Source: Eledone cirrhosa
Taxonomy: Eukaryota
Reading direction: 5' to 3'
Assembly (NCBI GenBank): GCA_964016885.1
Contig: OZ024751.1
Location: forward strand, 11,408,001 to 11,472,000
Length of the DNA stretch: 64,000 nucleotides
A model generated the notes under the pieces. It made no database searches. It was not told the origin of the DNA and was given only the letters and a program-made list of their open reading frames with translations. Below, piece by piece: positions 7,234 to 49,309 of the stretch. How positions within the stretch are numbered: position 1 is the first letter of the stretch; each line of letters opens with the position of its first letter. The position numbers and the translations under genes were made by a program.

Positions 7234-7465
7234 AATATATATGAAAAGGCTGAATGCACGGTGTGGTATATACATACATACAAACACACACTCACACTCA
7301 CACACGCACTCATATATATATATATATGAATGTATGTTGAGTATATTTGGCAATATACTGTATGTTTAATTAAAAATATTTAGAAGATCTGAGTTTTAAA
7401 ATAGTGACTACGTCACTTACTTAATCTCGGCAAAAGTAACAGATATTGTATATATATATATATAA

Positions 7466-11747: not shown

Positions 11748-11829
11748 GCCTTTACCGCGGTTTCAGATCCCAAAACGAATAGATGATCCAAGCAGATTCA
11801 CATTGAGAAAATGATCCTCGTCAGAAGGC
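11748..11829 (-). ncRNA. Type I hammerhead ribozyme inside an inverted-repeat module (arms 11671-11732 and 11860-11921)
   Basis: gcctt-CTGACGA-ggatc...gatct-GAAA-ccgcgg-TA-aaggc. Intact core, 5-bp stem I, palindromic stem III. Confidence 0.85.
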
Positions 11830-24160: not shown

Positions 24161-24374
24161 GTCCCCCACCCCCACACTCAAGCGTGAAACTAAAAACCAT
24201 ATTTGTACTGCCTCTTTGTTTTTGTTCTCTTTTCATTTATTAAACTATATATATATATATAGTTTAATATATATATATATATAGTAATAATAATAAATTT
24301 GAAGACTAAAATCCAAAGAGGGCTCGATAAGGATAAATATATATAAAAAATATAAGAACCGTAGAGCAAATATT

Positions 24375-24519
24375 TATTAAAATAACAGATTAAAGTTTAA
24401 GCAAAGGATCGCTGCTTTCACCCTTAACAGGATCTTCTGAAATTAAAAAAGTTTCAGAAGATCCCGTTAAGGGTGAAAGCAGCGATTCTTTGCTTAAACT
24501 TTAATCTGTTATTTTAATA
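24375..24519. repeat. 145-bp hairpin with a degenerate hammerhead-like core in each arm
   Basis: Inverted arms; CAGAAGA-t-ccc-gttaa-ggg-t-GAAA. The same cccgttaagggtgaaa occurs at about 27627-27643 (-). Confidence 0.7.
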
Positions 24520-24729
24520 TATATATATATATATTTATAAAAATGAGGTAAATATCTCACTGAGTTCTAAGTACCCATAGAGATATATAGGGTGTCCATA
24601 ATATAATTGTTGTTATATGGTACTAATTCGAGATACCAGAACTATAAAAATTGATGAGCAGAACAAACAAACATTAAACAATCCTTTAAATAAATTAAAA
24701 AATGATTTAAATATCTACCTGTTCATAAT

Positions 24730-26134: not shown

Positions 26135-26690
26135 ATTGGTGAATTGGCAGTATCGGTAGAGGGTCGGACGCCATGCTTTCCAGCATAGTTACGTCCCTTT
26201 ACGATCTGAGTTCAAATCCCGCCGAGGTTGACTTTGCCTTTCATCCTTACGGGGTCGATAAAATAAAGTACCAGTAACGCACTGGGTAATTGCTGGCCTT
26301 GTGCCTAAAGTAGAAACAATTATATTATCAGTAGAGGGTTGGACGCCATGTTTTCTAGCATAGTTACGTCCCTTTACAGTCTGAGTTCAAATCTCGCCGA
26401 GGTTAACTTTGCCTTTCATCCTTACGGGGTCGATAAAATAAAGTACCAGTAATGTACTGATAATTGCTGGCCTTGTGCAAAAAGTAGAAACAATTATTAG
26501 GGCGGTGGATTGGCAGTATCGGTAGAGGGTCGGACGCCATGCTTTGAAGCATAGAGTTACGGCTCATGCCATTCTGAGTTCAAATCCCGCCGAGGTTAAC
26601 TTTGCCTTTCATCCTTACGGGGTCGATAAACTAAAGTACCAGTAATGCACTGGATAATTGCTGGCCTTGTGCCAAAAGTAGAAACAATTA
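26135..26690 (+). mobile_element. Three head-to-tail SINE copies
   Basis: Each ends agtagaaacaatta. The copies differ at diagnostic positions. Confidence 0.9.
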
Positions 26691-27195
26691 TATTCTAAAT
26701 CCTACTGACTAATATCATTAAATATTAGGAATATATATAATCCTTATTGTTTGCATCTGAAGATGTTATAGCTTGGCTATTTTGATTCTGCGACAACTTT
26801 GTATTACAGATGTGTCACGATAGACAAAAATCACTTTTCTCCTCTATATTCACAATATATTCTTATCACCCACATTGAAACACACATACAAGCGCCCGCA
26901 CACACATCTACACACAAGCACATATATTTTTGTGTGCATATATGTGCATGTGTGTAGATGTGTGTGTGTGTGCTTGTCTGTAATTTAAGACAGCGAAAAC
27001 GTCTCATAATGGGAAAATACTTTGAAAGGAAGTTGCCCCCGAAATGGGAATACAAATGGAATAAAACCTGTTTGACGAAAATCGCAGCACAGGTTCCCGA
27101 GATAGGGTTTTTTTCTGGGTACCTTCATAAATAGAAAGCGAGAAAGATAGAGAGAAAGGGATTGTGGTTGTGAGAGAGTAAATTGGAAGAGAGAC

Positions 27196-27265
<70 letters not shown>

Positions 27266-27364
27266 CACACATAAGGGCCTTTCAATTTCATTTTGCATTA
27301 TCGACATGTCTGTGTATATTTTATTTAAAAAATTATTTTCAAGAGAACGTGACCCACGGATGGT

Positions 27365-27404
<40 letters not shown>

Positions 27405-27522
27405 TGTATATACAGTGTATTTTGCAATATACTGTATGCTTAATTAAAAGCATTTTGAAGACCTTACGCTATTGTTTTAAAGTAGTGAATATGTCACTTC
27501 TTTTTTCAGAAAACAAAGGGAA

Positions 27523-27568
27523 TAAGCTGACAGATCTGTTTCGTACTGTTGGTACTCCTCAGAGCTTA
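27523..27568 (-). ncRNA. Canonical type I hammerhead ribozyme
   Basis: taagct-CTGAGGA-gtac-caaca-gtac-GAAA-ca-gatc-tg-TC-agctta. All three stems pair perfectly and the cleavage triplet is GUC. The downstream tail (27400-27520) resembles 7327-7450. Confidence 0.9.
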
Positions 27569-29444
27569 CCACTCCTGGAATTCTATAAGAATCCAACATT
27601 CATAATTTTCAGCAGGCAAAGGGAGTTTTCACCCTTAACGGGATATGAAATCTTCGAATCTCTATATATATAAATGATACAGTTTTTGTTTTCTGTTAGC
27701 AACACCTCTACATCATGTTTTTTTAGTTTTGCAGTCAGCAGATGTTTTGATAGAAACGTCTGCAGGATATCCCTTGTATTGAAACATAAGACACATTGAA
27801 AACCAGAAAAATATTTTGTATATTAATCTCATGCTAACCTGCATCTATGTATGCTAATATATATTGTTTTAGCAACATCTAGCCACATTGTAAGGCAACA
27901 TCATTTTATGAGGCTGCGGGTACATCGGCTGTTGAAATGTGTAATACCTTCCAAAGAAATTTGGCGTGAAAGGTCGTATTTAATTGATTCGTTATTTTAT
28001 GAAGATCGAAAGAATGGTTGATAACATGGATCTGTTCAAAGTTTGAAATCATAACGAAGAGAGTAATAGCTATTAGACTATATAATGTTTCGTCTACTCC
28101 CGAAATGAGTTTGTCAATCTTGCCTCGGTTTTATTAAATTGCTACTAATCTATTCTGTGTAATAATCAGTGGGAATTTACATTTATGCTACTGAGGAAAA
28201 TGATAAAAATATTTTTTAGAAGATAAGTAGGAATTCGCAACATATCGTGAGTGAACATTCAATAACAGTCATCCAGTTCTTACTTTACTTTATCTTGATG
28301 CTGATCATTAAAAACTATTAAGATTGGAGGTACAATATATTGTCAAAAATCTACCATCTATAAACAAGATCTTTCTCTACATGGCGGCTACGAGAAGACA
28401 GTTTTAGATTTTTTATAGCTTCACTTGGTTTCCCCTTTTTTTCTCATTTTCTTCATGCTTTTTTCGTTTCCCGCTGGCGTATTTTTTAATATATTTCTCT
28501 ATCTCGTTATTGTTTCATAACTATAAGGGGTATTAAATACTTCCCGTAGTATATCATAGCTAACAAGCTATATACCGACGTATAAATTGATTAAATAAAA
28601 AAAAATCTCAACTATTGAAGGATAAATTGTAAAGATAAACTCGAGCTAGATTTGAACACAGAACATAAGGATGTATATCTAAACATCACGTGACATTCAA
28701 TCAATTCGTCTTCCGATTCAGCAAAATATATACAGAGACCTTATAATGATAATGATAATAAATATAGGGAAAATATACTGGAAAATGGGATAATAAAAGT
28801 AGATAGTAGAAAGAGTTATTCTAACTAATAGTGTATTCTTTTTTTCTTTATTCCCCGAACTATTTTTCTACATTTAATATATATATGTTTCAATGTCGGC
28901 CATTAGCAAGACGTTTGACTTCATTTATATCGCCATTTTCTCTCTTTTCGTGTTATTTTTTCATTTTCACTAGAAGTGTTAGTTTGCTTTCTTCCAGCTT
29001 ATGAATGCTTCGCCTTCAAACAACGACGGAAAAATTACAGTGTGGCTGGTACAATTTGCTTATTACACTTCAAATTTAGCAGCACTCGCTATATGATTAA
29101 AGACAAAGTTGTTTGATTAAACAGCGTAAGAGTGCAAGAAAGACGGGACACGTAGTAAAAGAAGTAAGGGCGGTCTCTTAAAGGGAGATGATTAAGGCCG
29201 TTGTACAATGAGTGTACTCACAGCCGAAGTCTACTTGATTGCTTTTAGCGCGATATTGTTTAGTCAATATGGTGGAGGTTGTAAAATACATAGAAAGAAG
29301 GAAAGAGCACAGAGAAGAAAGCAAAGGAAAAAAAAAATGAGAAAGAAAGAGATAATGAAAATGAAGAAGAAAGAATATATTATTTCCAATTTATGTGTAT
29401 TTACAGTGTTTTTTTTTACTTAGTACCTATGCTGTAACATAACA

Positions 29445-29533
<89 letters not shown>

Positions 29534-35137: not shown

Positions 35138-36110
35138 ACTTCGTTTTTTAATTTGATGCAAATAGGACTTGCCCCTGTATAGGAGTAAATCTTGGAATAC
35201 AATAGAAAGGATTAAGAAAAAGACAAATAAAATCAACTCATTGTATGATAGCAATAAATACCAGAGTATAATGTTCGTCAATACAACCCTTAGAGGTATA
35301 ATCAGTAAAACATACCCATTTCAAAGATCCATCTGTACTGATAGGAAATTCATCGTCAGCGAGCTAAGCCCGCAAACTAACTGCACAACTAGAAACGTAG
35401 TATATAGCATAAGATGTACTGACGGACAGTGTAGGTGTAAGAGCACAACATACATAAGCCAAACAGTCCTTAGCATAGGAAAAATGATAAGTGAACACTG
35501 GCGAGATCTTCAAGATGAGAAAACCTCATTAGTACTGCACCAACAAGCCAAAATAGTACATAGTTGCACACAGGAGATCATAGAAATACAAATTATATCC
35601 ACACACAGAAAGATGCAATGCTCTGATAAATCACAGAGGCGACAAACATAAACGAACTCCAACCAAAATTAAACATAAAACATGAGTGGAATAGCAACAT
35701 CACAACTAGTAATTCAGGACAAAATGAAGACATACAGACACACACCAGTCAAAAACCAAACTAATGAAACAAATCAGACACAGACAGATAGAACAAACAA
35801 CCAACTAGTGGCAAGTAAATAAACACATAAATAAATAAATAAAAACATACTCACACCTGGATGTAACGCATGCGCAAAGCAAGCACAGAGTACACAAAAC
35901 TAAAAAAAAAAGATGGTGTAGGACAGAACAAAGTAGAGACACGATAAAAACACTGTCATTGAGGAAGTTACAGAATGAGTAACGAAAGAGCTTTGACAAT
36001 ATATGAGCAACCACCCGGTTATCGAACCAACCGGAAATTTATAATAAATTGAAGTGAAAACGAGAAGGGGCGTGTGTTTTAATTGGCAGCATGACCCTCC
36101 CAAAGTACAA
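35138..36110 (+). mobile_element. 5'-truncated Penelope-like element (Neptune-like): Cys-rich linker, GIY-YIG remnant and 3' terminal repeat
   Basis: ORF 35169-35651 reads PLYRSKSW...NCTTRNVVYSIRC...TYISQT. An HHR motif lies downstream. The 5' end abuts (TA)n. Confidence 0.85.
35954..35998 (+). ncRNA. Hammerhead ribozyme motif (C3 mutated) in the PLE 3' repeat
   Basis: tgtca-TTGAGGA-a-gttac-agaatga-gtaac-GAAA-gagc-TT-tgaca. Confidence 0.65.
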
Positions 36111-36940: not shown

Positions 36941-37112
36941 GTTTCTAGTACTGTTTCATTCGTGAGAAATCCATCAGGAAGCTTCCTGATGATTTCTCAC
37001 GAGGCAAACAGTTCTAGTCCCGTAGAAGCTCTTCTATATTAACAAGTTTATACTCTGCTAGGTATTGAGTACCTTACTTACTGTGGTTAGCTCCGATTCA
37101 ACCCGGAATAAC
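36938..37112 (+). mobile_element. Palindromic double-hammerhead short element, family A copy 3
   Basis: catcaggaagcttcctgatg centre and the same tail as copies 1 and 2. Both cores carry point mutations. Confidence 0.75.
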
Positions 37113-37139
37113 CTATATATATATATATTCGCACACACA

Positions 37140-38255
37140 CCTACAGACCCTTCCGTAAGCTTAACGAAAAACTCAATTACATTCACAAGGACTCATGCCA
37201 CCCTCCCACTGTTTTTAGAAACTTCGTAAATAATATCAGTACTAAAATCTCAAACCTCTGCTCTAATAAGGCTATCTTCAACAAAGCGCCACCCTACTAT
37301 AACACGGCGTTAGCTAACAGCGGCATCTCGCAACCTATCACTTACTCTCCCACTAACAACAACAGCAATAAGAAAAGAAAGCGTAACATTAGACAAACTA
37401 TCTGGTTCTCTCCTGCCTTCTCACTCAACGTTAAAACCAATGTAGGCAAAACATTTCTAGCCCTCTTAGATAGACACTTCCGCATAGGTCATAAATACCG
37501 CTCTATCTTTAACCGACACAAAGTTAAACAAGGACACTCCTGCGCTAAGAACATGAAGACCCACATCACCACCAGCCCTAAGAGCAACACCCCACCAGGG
37601 TGCTCTTGCCGTAAGCCCGAAGCTTGTCTCCTTCAACAGCAATGCAACACACCCGCTGTAGTTTATGAAGCTGTGGTCACTTCCAACCGACGACATCAAC
37701 CTCAGGAGGTCAAATCCGATGTGGGTATGGCGGAGGACCGATTTAAGGAACGCTTGCTGAAACACCAGTCGACATTTAGGTATCCGGACAGACGTTCATC
37801 CACGAAACTTGCGAGCCACGTATGTCTACTCGATGACTCAAGTATAGACTACTCCATTCAATGGAAAGCCATCACTAAGTCCAAGCCATACGCAAGGGGA
37901 AATCCGTCGTGTGGACTATGTATTGATGAACGAATAAATATTCTAAAGAGATTACGCAATAACGATTGCCTAAACTCAAGATATGAATTTTCACACGTTG
38001 TCCACACGTCTGGAAACCCCTCTTACATAACTGAAAAGCTCCGGATTGAATTACAACAACATCCTAATTTTCTTATCAACTAGAAACTTTCGGACTTTCG
38101 CAGTTATCTCCCTTACAACTCTCGCACGCAATTTAGTATTGCCTGAGTGAAGTGACCGTTTCTGCGCATACGGGTGTCCTTCCTGTTCCGTATAACCATG
38201 TCCATTACGAGCTGAGGATACGCTAGGGTGAAACAATTGTTCTCGGTATGGTGAA
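37140..38255 (+). mobile_element. 5'-truncated Penelope-like element (Nematis-like): RT thumb, linker, GIY-YIG endonuclease and 3' repeat
   Basis: TYRPFRKLNEKLNYIHKDSCHPP; IWFSPAFSLNVKTNVGKTFLALLDRHF; ORF 37553-38083 CSCRKPEAC..C..VVYEAVV..VGMAEDRFKER..H..CGLCIDE..LNSRYE. Confidence 0.9.
38202..38251 (+). ncRNA. Minimal type I hammerhead at the 3' end of the Nematis-like PLE
   Basis: ccattacgag-CTGAGGA-tacgctagggt-GAAA-caattg-TT-ctcggtatgg. Stem II is weakened. Confidence 0.75.
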
Positions 38256-39416: not shown

Positions 39417-39718
39417 ATATTAAAATATAAGTATTAATAAAATAGATGTTCTTTTGATCAATTACATTTTATTATACATATTTCGGCGTACACAGTACAT
39501 CCTCATCAGACAAAATATAATGATACATGACATACCCTGAGATGTTAAATTGGTTAAGATTTAATCAAGGTAAATATTAACCATTTAACATCTCAGGGTA
39601 TGTCATGTATCATTATATTTTGTCTGATGAGGACGTACTGTTGTACATCCGAAATATGTATAATAAAATGTAATTGATCAAAAGAACATCTATTTTTTTA
39701 ATACTTATATTTTAATAT
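39417..39718. ncRNA. 300-bp fold-back with an intact hammerhead in each arm (39461-39521 on -, 39612-39674 on +)
   Basis: attatattttgt-CTGATGA-ggacgtac-tgtt-gtacatcc-GAAA-tatgta-TA-ataaaatgtaat. Stem I is 12 bp including G-U pairs. Confidence 0.85.
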
Positions 39719-40700: not shown

Positions 40701-41503
40701 AAGAGAATATATAATGTTTCTACTTTCGGCACAAGGCCAGCAATTAACCCAGTACATTACTGGTACTTTATTTTATCGACCCGACCCCGTAAGGATGAAA
40801 GGCAAAGTTGACTTCGGCGGGATTTGAACTCAGAATAAAAAGGGCCGTAATTCTATGCGTCAAAGCATGGCGTCCGACCCTCTACCGATACTGCCAATCC
40901 ACCGAGAATATATAATAATTGTTTCTACTTTTGGCACAAGGCCAGCAATTAACCAGTGTATTACTGGTACTTTATTTTATCGACCCCGTAAGGATGAAAG
41001 GCAAAGTTGACTTCGGCGGGATTCGAACTGAGAATGGCAAGGGCCGTAACTCTATGCGTCAAAGCATGGCGTCCGGCCCTCAACCAATACTGCCAATCCA
41101 CCGAGAATATATAATAATTGTTTCTACTTTTGGCACAAGGCCAGCAATTAACCAGTGTATTACTGGTACTTTATTTTATCGACCCCGTAAGGATGAAAGG
41201 CAAAGTTGACTTCGGCGGGATTCGAACTGAGAATGGCAAGGGCCGTAACTCTATGCGTCAAAACATGGCGTCCGACCCTCTACCGATACTGCCAATCCAC
41301 CGAGAATATATAATAATTGTTTCTACTTTTGGCACAAGGCCAGCAATTAACCAGTGTATTACTGGTACTTTATTTTATCGACCCCGGTAAGGATGAAAGG
41401 CAAAGTTGACTTCGGCGGGATTCGAACTGAGAATGGCAAGGGCCGTAACTCTATGCGTCAAAGCATGGCGTCCGACCCTCTACCGATACTGCCAATCCAC
41501 CGC
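40701..41503 (-). mobile_element. Tandem array of four SINE units, period about 199 bp
   Basis: Near-identical units separated by gagaatatataataatt. The ORF starts at 40919 and 41118 differ by 199. Confidence 0.95.
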
Positions 41504-46065: not shown

Positions 46066-46254
46066 GACCATGCTGTAAAATGGAGGGGTAGAGAGGGCCC
46101 TTGAGTCTAGTAAGACATCCTCTCTAGTGCTGGTGGCACAAATAAAAGCACCCAGTCCATGCTGTAAAGTGGCGCTGGTGTTAGGAAGGGCATCCAACCA
46201 GTGTATCAATGCCAAAAAGCTTATCAGCACAGCAACAAAACAGCATAGAAAAAT

Positions 46255-48339
46255 ATGAAGACGTCGCATCTCAGAGTTGCAACACTTAATGTTGGCACTC
46301 TCAGAGGTAGGTCTGCTGAAATAGCGGAGATGCTGGAGAGAAGGCAGGTGGATGTGTGCTGCGTGCAAGAGGTGAGATGGAGGGGTGCCTCTGCGAGACT
46401 AGTCGTAGGCAAGCGTCTTAGCTATAAGCTATTCTGGGTAGGTAAGGATGATGGGTTAGGGGGAGTAGGCATTTTCCTGGCTGAGAAATGGATCAATAAG
46501 ACAATAGAGGTAGTTCGAGTTAGTAATCGAATAATTAAGCTTAGATTAGTTGTAGGTAGGAGACTACTGACAATCATCTCGGTCTATGCTCCCCAAGCAG
46601 GCCTAGGCAAAGATGAGAAAGACTGCTTTTATGAGCAACTTTTGCAAACAACCACAATGACAGAGGACGGAGACATCGTTATGCTAGCAGGAGACTTCAA
46701 TGGTCATGTTGGACAGCTCCAGGATGGTTACACTGGGGTACATGGTGGGCACGGTTACGGTTCAAGAAATGAAGAAGGAGTGAGACTTCTTGAATTTTGT
46801 GATGCAAGTACATTGACTATTTGCAACACAAACTTCCAGAAACCTGCCAATCACCTAATAACCTACAAATCTGGTGAGCACATAAGCCAGATTGACTTCC
46901 TGCTAGTTAGGCAGCGGGACAGGCAGATAGTGTCTAATACCAAGGCATACCCTGGGGAAGAATGTACCCCACAGCATAGGTTAGTTGTTAGTGATATCTC
47001 AGTAAGCAAGAGATGGAATGAGACATATAGGAAGGTGTGGAGAAGAAAGGTCTGGAAGCTAAAAGACCTTTCACTAAAATTCAAATTTAGGAAAGCCCTT
47101 CAAGATGTATATGACGAAAAAGAAGACGATTTAGAGACGTATGACATAGATAATAACTGGAAGTTCTTACGTGACAACTTGCTGAAGGCTACTGATGAAA
47201 CCTGTGGCTGGAGCAGAGCTCCAACCAGACAGAGAGTGACCTGGTGGTGGAACAGCAGTGTAGATAAGGCTATTAGAGACAAAAGACTAGCATGGAAGGC
47301 TTGGAATAAGGGTGGGAGTAGGGAAGAATATACAGCCACTAAGAGAGAAGCTAGACGTCAGGTGTACTTAGCACGCAGGGAGGCAGAGAGTAGGAGGTTT
47401 GCCAATGTTCTGCGACGGGAAGATCAGAGGCGTGCGGTGTTCCACATTGCAAGGCAGTGTGTCAATGCAAATCAGGATGTTGTTGGTGATAAATGTGTCC
47501 GGGATGATGCCGGTGTACTTAGTGTCACGAATGACCAGAAAAAGGAGGCCTGGAAATGTCATTATGAGAGACTGATGAATGTGGAGAACGAATGGGAGAG
47601 AGAGAAATTACCCTTGGTAGATCCGACAGAGGGACCAGCTATTGAGATTGACGAATATAGGGTCCAAGAGGCGATTAGGGAAATGAAAAATGGTAAGGCG
47701 GCCGGACCATCGGGAATAGTTGCTGAGATGCTGAAGGCATCAGGGGACGTAGGCACTAAACTGGTTGCACGCATAATCAATCAGGCTATATATGGTGGTG
47801 TCATACCCAAAGACTGGTGCAGCAGTATTCTCATAAATTGCTACAAAGGTAAAGGGGATGCTTTGGAGAGGAGCAATTATAGGGGTATAAAACTGATAGA
47901 TCAGGTTATGAAAGTGGCAGAAAGGATTCTAGCACAACTAATTAGAGAAAGGGTCAAACTAGATGAGATGCAGTTTGGTTTTGTGCCTGGGAAGAGTACA
48001 ACAGATGCCCTCTTCTTGGTGAGACAAATGCAAGAGAGGTTCTTAGAGAAGAATAAGCCACTATACTTAGCCTTTGTTGACCTAGAGAAGGCCTTTGATA
48101 GGGTACCCCGATCTGTCATCTGGTGGTCCCTAAGGAAGCTGGGTGTTGAGGAATGGCTTGTAAGGACAGTGCAAACTTTGTACAGAGGTACTCTCAGTAA
48201 AGTCAGGGTAGGAATGGAGTTTAGTGAGGAATTCCAGATACAAGTAGGAGTACATCAGGGTTCGGTCCTCAGCCCGCTCTTGTTCATTATAGTCCTCCAA
48301 GCCATAACAGAATTCTCTATGGGAACTTCTCTATGCTGA
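46255..48339 (+). CDS. RTE polyprotein N-terminal part: APE endonuclease and first RT domains (frameshifted near 48316)
   Basis: TLNVGTL, VQEVRW, SVYAPQ, GDFNGHVG, QIDFLL, PQHRLV; NYRGIKL, QFGFVPGKST, FVDLEKAFDRV, GVHQGSVLSPLLF. Confidence 0.95.
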   Translation: MKTSHLRVATLNVGTLRGRSAEIAEMLERRQVDVCCVQEVRWRGASARLVVGKRLSYKLFWVGKDDGLGGVGIFLAEKWINKTIEVVRVSNRIIKLRLVVGRRLLTIISVYAPQAGLGKDEKDCFYEQLLQTTTMTEDGDIVMLAGDFNGHVGQLQDGYTGVHGGHGYGSRNEEGVRLLEFCDASTLTICNTNFQKPANHLITYKSGEHISQIDFLLVRQRDRQIVSNTKAYPGEECTPQHRLVVSDISVSKRWNETYRKVWRRKVWKLKDLSLKFKFRKALQDVYDEKEDDLETYDIDNNWKFLRDNLLKATDETCGWSRAPTRQRVTWWWNSSVDKAIRDKRLAWKAWNKGGSREEYTATKREARRQVYLARREAESRRFANVLRREDQRRAVFHIARQCVNANQDVVGDKCVRDDAGVLSVTNDQKKEAWKCHYERLMNVENEWEREKLPLVDPTEGPAIEIDEYRVQEAIREMKNGKAAGPSGIVAEMLKASGDVGTKLVARIINQAIYGGVIPKDWCSSILINCYKGKGDALERSNYRGIKLIDQVMKVAERILAQLIRERVKLDEMQFGFVPGKSTTDALFLVRQMQERFLEKNKPLYLAFVDLEKAFDRVPRSVIWWSLRKLGVEEWLVRTVQTLYRGTLSKVRVGMEFSEEFQIQVGVHQGSVLSPLLFIIVLQAITEFSMGTSLC

Positions 48340-49309
48340 CGATCTGGCTCTTATGGCAGAATCAGTAGAGGAGCTAGAGAATAAATTCCGGCTATGGAAA
48401 CAGCAGTTGGAAGCAAGAGGACTGAGAGTAAATCTAGCTAAGACAAAAGTGTTGATGAGTAGAAAAGAGGACAAAACCCTGATTCCGTCAGGGAAATGGC
48501 CATGTTCGATATGCAGAAAAGGAACTGGCATAAATTCTATAAAATGCACACAATGTAGGTCCTGGGTACACAAGAGATGTAGCGGGATAGCAGGCAAACT
48601 AACAGGTAGGGAGAAATATGTATGCAGTAGATGTACAGGGAAATTAGACAGTAGAAGTCGCACTGATAGACACATTTTTCAAATGCGAGAGGGCGCTATA
48701 GAAGTGGTGGATAGCTTCCGGTACCTAGGAGATCAGATTAGCATGGGAGGAGGGTGTTCCGAGGCCATAGTATCTAGAATAAGGACGGGTTGGAAGAAGT
48801 TTAGGGAGCTGCTTCCTCTGTTGACGAAGAAGGGTTTCTCCCTGCGTACGAAAGGCCGGTTGTATGATGCCTGTGTGAGGAGCGCGATGCTGCATGGTAG
48901 TGAGACATGGGCAGCTACCGCAGAAGATATGCGACGGCTGGAGAGAAATGAGGCAAGCATGCTCCGTTGGATGTGCAGTGTAAATGTGCGTGAACGACCC
49001 AGCATAAATGTGTTGAGAGAGAAACTGTGTCTGAGAGGGATAGAATGTAGTGTACGGGAGAGGAGACTGAGGTGGTATGGACATGTGATGCGCATGGAGG
49101 ATGACCGATGGGTGAAGAAGTGCCAGGAAATGCCAGTTGAAGGAAGACGTGGTAGAGGTAGACCACGAAAAACATGGGCGGAGGTGGTGAGAACAGACCT
49201 CAGATCATTGAAGCTCACGGTGGAGATGACGAGGGACCGTGACGAGTGGAGAGATGCTGTGCTGAATAAGACCCGTCCCACCCTTGCAAGCAGGGAAAAG
49301 CGGACGTAA
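48317..49309 (+). CDS. RTE polyprotein C-terminal part: YADD, PHD-like finger, RT thumb
   Basis: LWELLYADDL (YADD at 48332-48343) is in frame with ORF 48353-49309. It continues CSIC..CTQCRSWVHKRC..CSRC, FRYLG, RLRWYGHV, GRPRKTW. Confidence 0.9.
   Translation, partial: LWELLYADDLALMAESVEELENKFRLWKQQLEARGLRVNLAKTKVLMSRKEDKTLIPSGKWPCSICRKGTGINSIKCTQCRSWVHKRCSGIAGKLTGREKYVCSRCTGKLDSRSRTDRHIFQMREGAIEVVDSFRYLGDQISMGGGCSEAIVSRIRTGWKKFRELLPLLTKKGFSLRTKGRLYDACVRSAMLHGSETWAATAEDMRRLERNEASMLRWMCSVNVRERPSINVLREKLCLRGIECSVRERRLRWYGHVMRMEDDRWVKKCQEMPVEGRRGRGRPRKTWAEVVRTDLRSLKLTVEMTRDRDEWRDAVLNKTRPTLASREKRT

Follow-up and report, generated by a model that had tools for sequence, protein, structure and literature searches.

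The 46 nucleotides at positions 27523–27568 of the Eledone cirrhosa DNA analyzed here (a stretch of 64,000 nt, referred to as the window) have the layout of a hammerhead ribozyme on the minus strand. The question raised by this locus is whether the motif is a working ribozyme in its own right or a piece of something larger. We read it, with a probability of about 0.85, as a 5'-truncated, single-ribozyme copy of a 318-nt non-LTR retrozyme; a reverse transcriptase-endonuclease of the Penelope type likely copied it from a probably circular RNA and inserted it in a (TA)n tract.

Read on the minus strand from 27568 to 27523, the motif consists, in order, of UAAGCU, CUGAGGA, GUAC, CAACA, GUAC, GAAA, CA, GAUC, UG, UC and AGCUUA. 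The first and last segments form a 6-bp stem I. The catalytic core CUGAGGA (27556–27562) is complete and holds a C3-G8 pair, which is U3-A8 in a subfamily elsewhere in the genome; the 4-bp stem II (27543–27555) pairs GUAC with GUAC across the loop CAACA. GAAA is followed by stem III (together 27530–27542), whose three pairs, A-U, C-G and A-U including A15.1-U16.1, close the loop GAUC inside the 10-nt palindrome ACAGAUCUGU. This form of stem III is 2 nt shorter than the commonest one in the family, CAGAGATCTG; the latter occurs in 63 of 113 family motifs and the former in seven. The triplet is GUC, and the sequence and the hammerhead consensus place the predicted cleavage site 3' of C17 (27529), between 27529 and 27528. 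Core CUGANGA, GAAA and NUH are thus all present in type I order with three helices.

A strict descriptor, demanding Watson-Crick pairing throughout a 6-bp stem I, a 4-bp stem II and a 2-bp stem III, found one match in the window and none in 200 Markov-resampled windows, which rules out a chance origin of the motif. The Rfam scan of the window returned no family at gathering score, and no hammerhead family was among the 31 Rfam matches at E<=10 in 26500–29500; this lowers the database support and leaves the reading of the motif unaffected. The isolated 46-mer folds like its shuffles (z = −0.57), and its minimum free energy (MFE) fold pairs the CUG of the core with stem III. Judged from its sequence, the motif is a true type I hammerhead with a predicted cut after 27529. 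To this extent the original prediction, which had proposed these stems, the intact core, the GUC triplet and the cut at 27529, was borne out, as was its remark that no ORF lies beside the hammerhead: six-frame translation of 27401–29400 gave short frames only.

The motif lies within an insertion of two arms. The main arm (27392–27574, minus strand) runs through monomer positions 272–318 and then 1–142 of the 318-nt repeat, i.e., across the cut site, and is 93.5% identical to the copy at L025 (L numbers denote loci of the same genome that carry the family or related elements). At 27367–27412, where the element stops at its fixed short 3' end, is a (TA)n tract, the likely insertion target. On the other side, at 27575–27626 (plus strand), follows an inverted and shortened second arm that covers monomer 223–274. 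An older 3' fragment at 7318–7422 (minus strand), 79% identical and devoid of a ribozyme, belongs to this family or a related one and also ends in (TA)n.

In intact copies of the family the internal loop of stem I is closed by about 20 bp; in type I hammerheads a closed upper stem I holds the tertiary contact between loop 1 and loop 2. The 5' strand of this upper stem I is mostly missing from the window copy because of the truncation at monomer 272; about 16 of the 20 bp are lost, the internal bulge is kept, and the 3' strand (27500–27522, minus strand) is left mostly partnerless, with about four weak closing pairs. Retrozymes have been called 'active' where at least two consecutive complete ribozymes are found (bioRxiv 10.64898/2026.07.22.740005, as the criterion is worded there); the 5'-truncated window copy carries only one.

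Folding calculations agree with this damage. For a 104-nt region the fold z score is 0.06 in the window copy, −6.25 at L013, −4.39 at L006, −6.82 at L041 and −4.92 at L048. Forcing the ribozyme fold on the window copy costs 3.8–8.5 kcal/mol above the MFE over eight context lengths. The corresponding cost is 0.5 kcal/mol for both L013 and L031, 1.8 for L008, which has the same short loop III, 3.4 in a U3-A8 copy and 5.8 in the monomer of a 311-nt sister family. Since that sister family is young, the modeled energy gap is by itself no proof of inactivity, and MFE folds mispair the core in intact copies too. The window copy is nevertheless predicted to be a relic and a weak candidate for activity, because upper stem I is mostly lost and the ribozyme fold lies far above the best fold. 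Minimal hammerheads are expected to cut at high Mg2+, and the window ribozyme may still do so; in these models its cleavage of a minus-strand transcript would be weak at most, and no circle would arise from it because the second ribozyme is absent. The description of the motif as 'textbook-perfect' was therefore too generous, given the lost upper stem I and the predicted misfolding in context, and its rank as the window's best candidate for an active ribozyme was overstated as well (z of 0.06, against −4.4 to −6.3 in two intact copies, one with a C3-G8 and one with a U3-A8 core). What stands of that interpretation is the type I hammerhead and its cut site; its context is incomplete, and the motif belongs to a truncated copy of a mobile repeat.

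A second hammerhead-like remnant had been reported just upstream on the same strand and taken as a hint of tandem ribozymes. The remnant exists, at 27627–27656 (minus strand; stem II CCC-GTTAA-GGG followed by GAAA, damaged core), but it is a piece of another repeat family with a hammerhead-like layout. The parent repeat is abundant, carries CAGAAGA where a hammerhead has CUGANGA, shows a U-U at the foot of stem II, and is found whole as an inverted pair at about 24330–24520. The 52 nt leading up to the remnant are the inverted piece of the 318-nt element, and the locus holds a single ribozyme. In the window and at L003 alike, the remnant repeat passes into the 318-nt family immediately behind its GAAA, and the join at 27626/27627 suggests either a deletion between two neighboring TA-inserted elements or a template switch.

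Other repeats of the window may be recorded here. A relaxed descriptor returned three more motifs. Two of them, at 39473–39509 (minus strand) and 39624–39662 (plus strand), are back-to-back hammerheads of another family, with CUGAUGA, GAAA UAUGUA UA and a long AU-rich stem I, and have relatives in other loci. The third, at 11753–11824 (minus strand), has a long helix II and the palindromic helix III ACCGCGGU, with relatives at L057, L035 and L232. A hammerhead-like string at 28070–28115 was set aside, having no convincing relative in the fetched loci (one weak match). A LINE with AP endonuclease and reverse transcriptase domains, split over two frames and bearing a PHD-like finger, occupies 46249–49306 (plus strand), and an abundant SINE-like repeat, of cephalopod look, forms tandems at 26151–26694 and 40707–41502, with copies of 175 and 199 nt.

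The 318-nt repeat itself was delimited by genome comparison. A search of the 3.0-Gb genome with 27480–28200, from a window rich in microsatellites, gave 2025 candidates; among the 40 that were scored, the non-self matches span only 27480 to about 27629. The 26-nt hammerhead core has at least 71 exact copies in the genome (control, 0), and its U3-A8 form at least 39. A natural head-to-tail dimer at L031 defines the unit: 318 nt from cut site to cut site, 34% GC and non-coding. A complete unit between two ribozymes is present at L031, L032, L050, L056 (twice) and L080, i.e., at 5 of the 85 loci mapped, duplicates included. Tandem copies occur as head-to-tail dimers and a trimer elsewhere in the genome, the window copy itself having no such partner. 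Large tandem segmental repeats at C2:338.33–338.46 Mb and C12:17.0–17.47 Mb, with periods of about 44 kb and about 60 kb, carry copies of elements that are identical. Folded as a circle, the unit reaches −80.0 kcal/mol, compared with −50.9 ± 4.1 for shuffled sequences (none of 60 as good), and the ribozyme caps a stem I of about 26 bp.

Element maps of the loci examined showed no LTR layout, and neither inside the 318-nt unit nor consistently upstream of it was there an ORF for a reverse transcriptase or a GIY-YIG endonuclease. The family is flanked by (TA)n, in which a target-site duplication (criterion, >4 bp) is unreadable; short stretches of flanking DNA carry dozens of hammerhead motifs from other families. 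No RNA run was listed as containing the sequence. Three sequencing runs of unrecorded type, all from one sample, contain the family, at a depth far higher on the body of the unit than on the ribozyme part, a pattern unusable for expression or copy number. By family-level criteria that can be tested on sequence, the 318-nt repeat is a new sequence family of metazoan non-LTR retrozyme, mostly made up of dispersed truncated copies. The literature consulted, on cephalopod hammerheads and retrozymes and on the mechanism of Penelope-like elements (PLEs) since 2022, does not describe it, though most subscription journals lie outside that literature and cephalopod examples may be listed in supplements to the retrozyme papers.

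Covariation in other copies had been named as a check on the fold, and at the level of the family it is present both in the stems and in the 3-8 core pair. For the alignment, 31 of the 113 motifs were hand-picked to include divergent subfamilies. In these copies 94.3% of the helix cells are paired, as opposed to 40–50% in slid controls, and both partners change in 14 of 35 pairs, compared with 3.9 ± 1.5 after shuffling (0 of 500 shuffles reaching this number), the double-sided changes stemming from a few divergent subfamilies and hence from few independent events. Stem II was misregistered by MAFFT in two rows of the alignment. Among all 113 motifs, most of whose loci were chosen for a C3-G8 core, the 3-8 pair is CG in 104, UA in seven, UG in one and CA in one.

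In the first 100 of 136 degenerate matches, compared by eye, TGATAA occurs 27 times, always at the positions of exact U3-A8 copies, and TGAGGA 58 times, 54 of them at those of exact C3 copies. The U3-A8 subfamily comprises L006, L009, L011, L041 and L221–L240, with L041 as a more divergent branch whose stem II is GCUU/AAGC. Natural and active covariation between C3-G8 and U3-A8 has been described (PMC3088659), and a natural U3-A8 core variant has been reported (PMC4209133), in the portions of these papers drawn on here. Going by the aligned copies, the ribozyme structure of the family is under selection, and a subfamily has spread with a compensatory U3-A8 core pair. Such compensatory core changes imply that cleavage itself is under selection.

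How the family inserts was addressed by mapping the ends of 209 arms at 107 loci (113 identifiers minus six duplicates). The 3' ends fall mainly into two classes, at monomer 134–150 (short, n=95) and 160–182 (long, n=71), with ten ends at 308–318 and 33 elsewhere. TA repeats lie beside 70 of the 95 short ends and 58 of the 71 long ones, but beside none of the ten at 308–318 and only six of the other 33. Of 64 back-to-back pairs, 32 combine a short with a long end, six are short-short, two are long-long, and 24, including the window copy, have an end outside both classes. There are thus two fixed 3' ends about 26–31 nt apart, while the 5' ends are scattered round the whole monomer. The cut site is crossed by 134 of the 209 arms and 66 arms exceed 330 nt, both fractions being inflated by the choice of loci.

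A linear self-cleaved monomer cannot yield such arms, because they cross the cut site or exceed unit length. As a template it was further rejected for want of any pile-up of 5' ends at the cut site: the starts of 24 of the 209 arms fall at monomer 1–10, where about 25 are expected, given that pieces below 29 nt were filtered and starts at 291–318 therefore enter that bin. Twin priming of the L1 style fits the window copy, in which monomer 223–274 is inverted next to 272 onward, and remains a minor possibility for it; it does not fit the family, whose second arms reach fixed ends. PLEs, in the account available (PMC8557442), show 5' truncation, an inverted 5'-truncated partner, a tail of 30–40 bp at one end and a bias for (TA)n. 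The family displays 5' truncation, an inverted partner, a one-sided tail and a microsatellite target. It inserts like a PLE but is not an autonomous PLE.

A younger relative carries the same footprint. Adjoining the L048 copy is a 311-nt sister retrozyme with a hammerhead of its own (stem II AUUC/GAAU, a 1-bp helix III, palindromic ACGCGU), which resembles the 318-nt family most at monomer about 130–195. Near-identical back-to-back arrays of it are found on many contigs, with 484 matches from the 39 scored of 95 candidates. Eighteen loci were examined (L048/L089 and L154–L170). Both outer ends could be read at 14, and each of these has one at about 140 and the other at 165–173, in (TA)n; the remaining loci comprise two with a single arm, one rearranged and one running off the stretch. 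Arms contain up to 16 identical units, each ribozyme intact, and arrays up to 24 full units. Single loci have their own variants: G181T, confined to L170, is carried by 17 of 17 units across its two arms, G33, confined to L089, by nine of nine units there, and A119G marks four loci. In sequence, this pattern fits the trace expected of repeated copying of one circle from both sides of a break, and a homogeneous linear multimer is a possible explanation as well.

Taken as a cycle, the preferred reading runs as follows. Tandem copies would be transcribed, one cut per hammerhead would free the 318-nt monomer, and the monomer would be ligated into a circle. A Penelope enzyme would nick (TA)n and start cDNA synthesis from either side of the break, at about monomer 142 and 168, then travel round the circle past the ligated cut site and stop at random. 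We infer the circle from the arms that cross the cut site, which fit reverse transcription round an RNA circle, although an uncleaved linear multimer could produce identical junctions. For the window copy, the main arm would have halted after about 185 nt, just beyond the ribozyme, and the second arm would have been shortened by later deletion or template switch.

That last alternative leads to a reading in which the element is the same but its template is a long uncut tandem transcript of a genomic array, with a ribozyme that is slow or only occasionally relevant. We regard this as unlikely, though not negligible. The genome does contain tandem arrays; only one of nine frog retrozyme dimers was cleaved in vitro, by the account in bioRxiv 10.64898/2026.07.22.740005; and, as noted, the core is mispaired in MFE folds even of intact copies. 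These points have to be set against sister arms of 16 units in which every ribozyme is intact, locus-wide variants common to both arms, and core changes whose compensatory nature implies selected cleavage. Moreover, random 5' truncation should shorten the arrays at every round unless a rolling step regrows them.

Two further readings concern the origin and the present role of the window copy. It could be the solo pseudo-LTR (pLTR) of an autonomous PLE that lost its coding part through 5' truncation. Type I hammerheads occur in the pLTRs of PLEs, of which many copies are left single or on opposite strands, 100–700 bp apart (PMC4209133, in the part used here), the 318-nt family has a PLE-like end pattern, and retrozymes have been proposed to descend from pLTRs (bioRxiv 10.64898/2026.07.22.740005, in the passages relied on). 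At L059, a PLE endonuclease fragment is joined to the 5' end of an arm. However, tblastn with one PLE protein over 132 locus identifiers found only this one direct junction; the upstream neighbor of the ribozyme is the preceding 318-nt unit, an arm in inverted orientation or DNA unrelated to the element; and the ribozyme, with its canonical form and long stem I, is unlike the minimal PLE type. We therefore consider a pLTR origin improbable. Still less credit is due to the notion that the host has adopted the window copy as a functional ribozyme cutting a local transcript, which we hold to be very improbable. Its core, stems I–III and triplet are all intact, yet the copy is an ordinary one, with about 94% identity to others against a family median of 93.7%; its upper stem I is lost, its ribozyme fold lies 3.8–8.5 kcal/mol above the MFE as opposed to 0.5 in L013 and L031, and neither a gene nor a transcript was linked to it.

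The 318-nt family resembles the metazoan non-LTR retrozymes, as far as these are portrayed in the sections consulted of PMC7229834 and bioRxiv 10.64898/2026.07.22.740005. Both have a canonical type I hammerhead in a low-GC, non-coding unit of 150–450 nt, the reported units measuring 220–245 nt in coral, 350–390 nt in mussel and 330/350 nt in axolotl (Cervera and de la Pena 2020, PMC7229834). Retrozymes are defined as having under 45–50% GC, and the family has 34%. Monomers, dimers and multimers, a strongly self-paired circular fold with the ribozyme exposed, and co-occurring PLEs are likewise shared. What differs is that two-armed insertions with paired fixed ends, a feature of the 318-nt family, are not described in those sections, and that the family is a new sequence, mostly of dispersed truncated copies and known here from genome sequence.

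Compared with the EN+ PLEs Neptune and Naiad, as characterized in the part consulted of Craig et al. 2021 (PMC8557442), the family shares 5' truncation, partial tandems, a 5'-truncated copy placed inverted at the 5' end, a short tail on only one side and the (TA)n bias. It differs in having no ORF, a tail of about 26–31 nt rather than 30–40 bp and a unit of 318 nt rather than 3–4 kb. With the minimal hammerheads of PLEs (Cervera and de la Pena 2014, PMC4209133, likewise in part) it has in common the type I topology, a dimer-capable palindromic stem III and the U3-A8 variant. Those hammerheads have a long helix II and a short helix I, whereas the 318-nt family has a 6-bp helix I, a 4-bp helix II, a 3–4 bp helix III and a long closing stem I.

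Machinery of the proposed kind is present in the genome. Through a protein fragment in one of the flanks we came upon an element of very high abundance (26,770 candidates, 130 scored; L201–L220) with near-identical copies, a tandem period of about 4.1 kb and a 1217-aa ORF; a fragment lies in the window at 35166–35648. By eye, the ORF is Neptune-like, with YVDD, DKSG, a Cys-rich linker and a GIY-YIG-like end. It had no Pfam or PDB match, and its GIY-YIG stretch weakly matches a Pfam-positive fragment (26% over 46 aa, E 6e-4). The terminal repeat of the element holds a minimal hammerhead-like motif, and its two-ended, TA-flanked layout is like that of the 318-nt family. It is a fragment of this element's endonuclease that is directly joined to the retrozyme arm at L059. 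We do not claim the element as the retrozyme's partner: comparison with the 318-nt monomer revealed no significant shared sequence, and its tail of 43–58 nt is longer than 26–31 nt. The element demonstrates the presence of such machinery without identifying the partner, and fragments of other PLE families also occur in the loci. A degraded GIY-YIG gene just upstream of the window copy (27650–28300) was considered and rejected, as that region has short frames only and genome matches only at its far end, to an old unrelated repeat (28290–28590). Elsewhere in the window, a 323-aa frame (37112–38080, plus strand) resembles by eye the C-terminal part of another PLE family and has no Pfam match.

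By itself the 46-nt motif matters little, being one damaged copy among the genome's many hammerheads; the family matters more. The reverse transcription and insertion of animal retrozymes are still a proposal in the accounts given by PMC7229834 and bioRxiv 10.64898/2026.07.22.740005. We think it somewhat better than an even bet that both families record this long-proposed cycle, in which a Penelope enzyme would prime at two fixed internal sites of one circular RNA, rather than at ribozyme-made ends, and roll from both sides of a (TA)n break. Under the same proposal, the lineage would have switched between C3-G8 and U3-A8 cores and between a helix III of 3–4 bp (likely monomer-acting) and one of 1 bp (likely dimer-acting), and the conserved segment at monomer about 130–195 would be the enzyme's recognition signal. 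The fixed paired ends, the arms crossing the cut site and the conserved priming-site segment yield exact predictions for an assay of a Penelope reverse transcriptase. The sister arrays are a better experimental subject than the window copy. The natural subfamilies (C3-G8, U3-A8, long and short helix III) offer a ready series for comparing cleavage. The 318-nt family has its value as a second, older family that bears the same footprint as the 311-nt sister and, in addition, a compensatory switch of the core.
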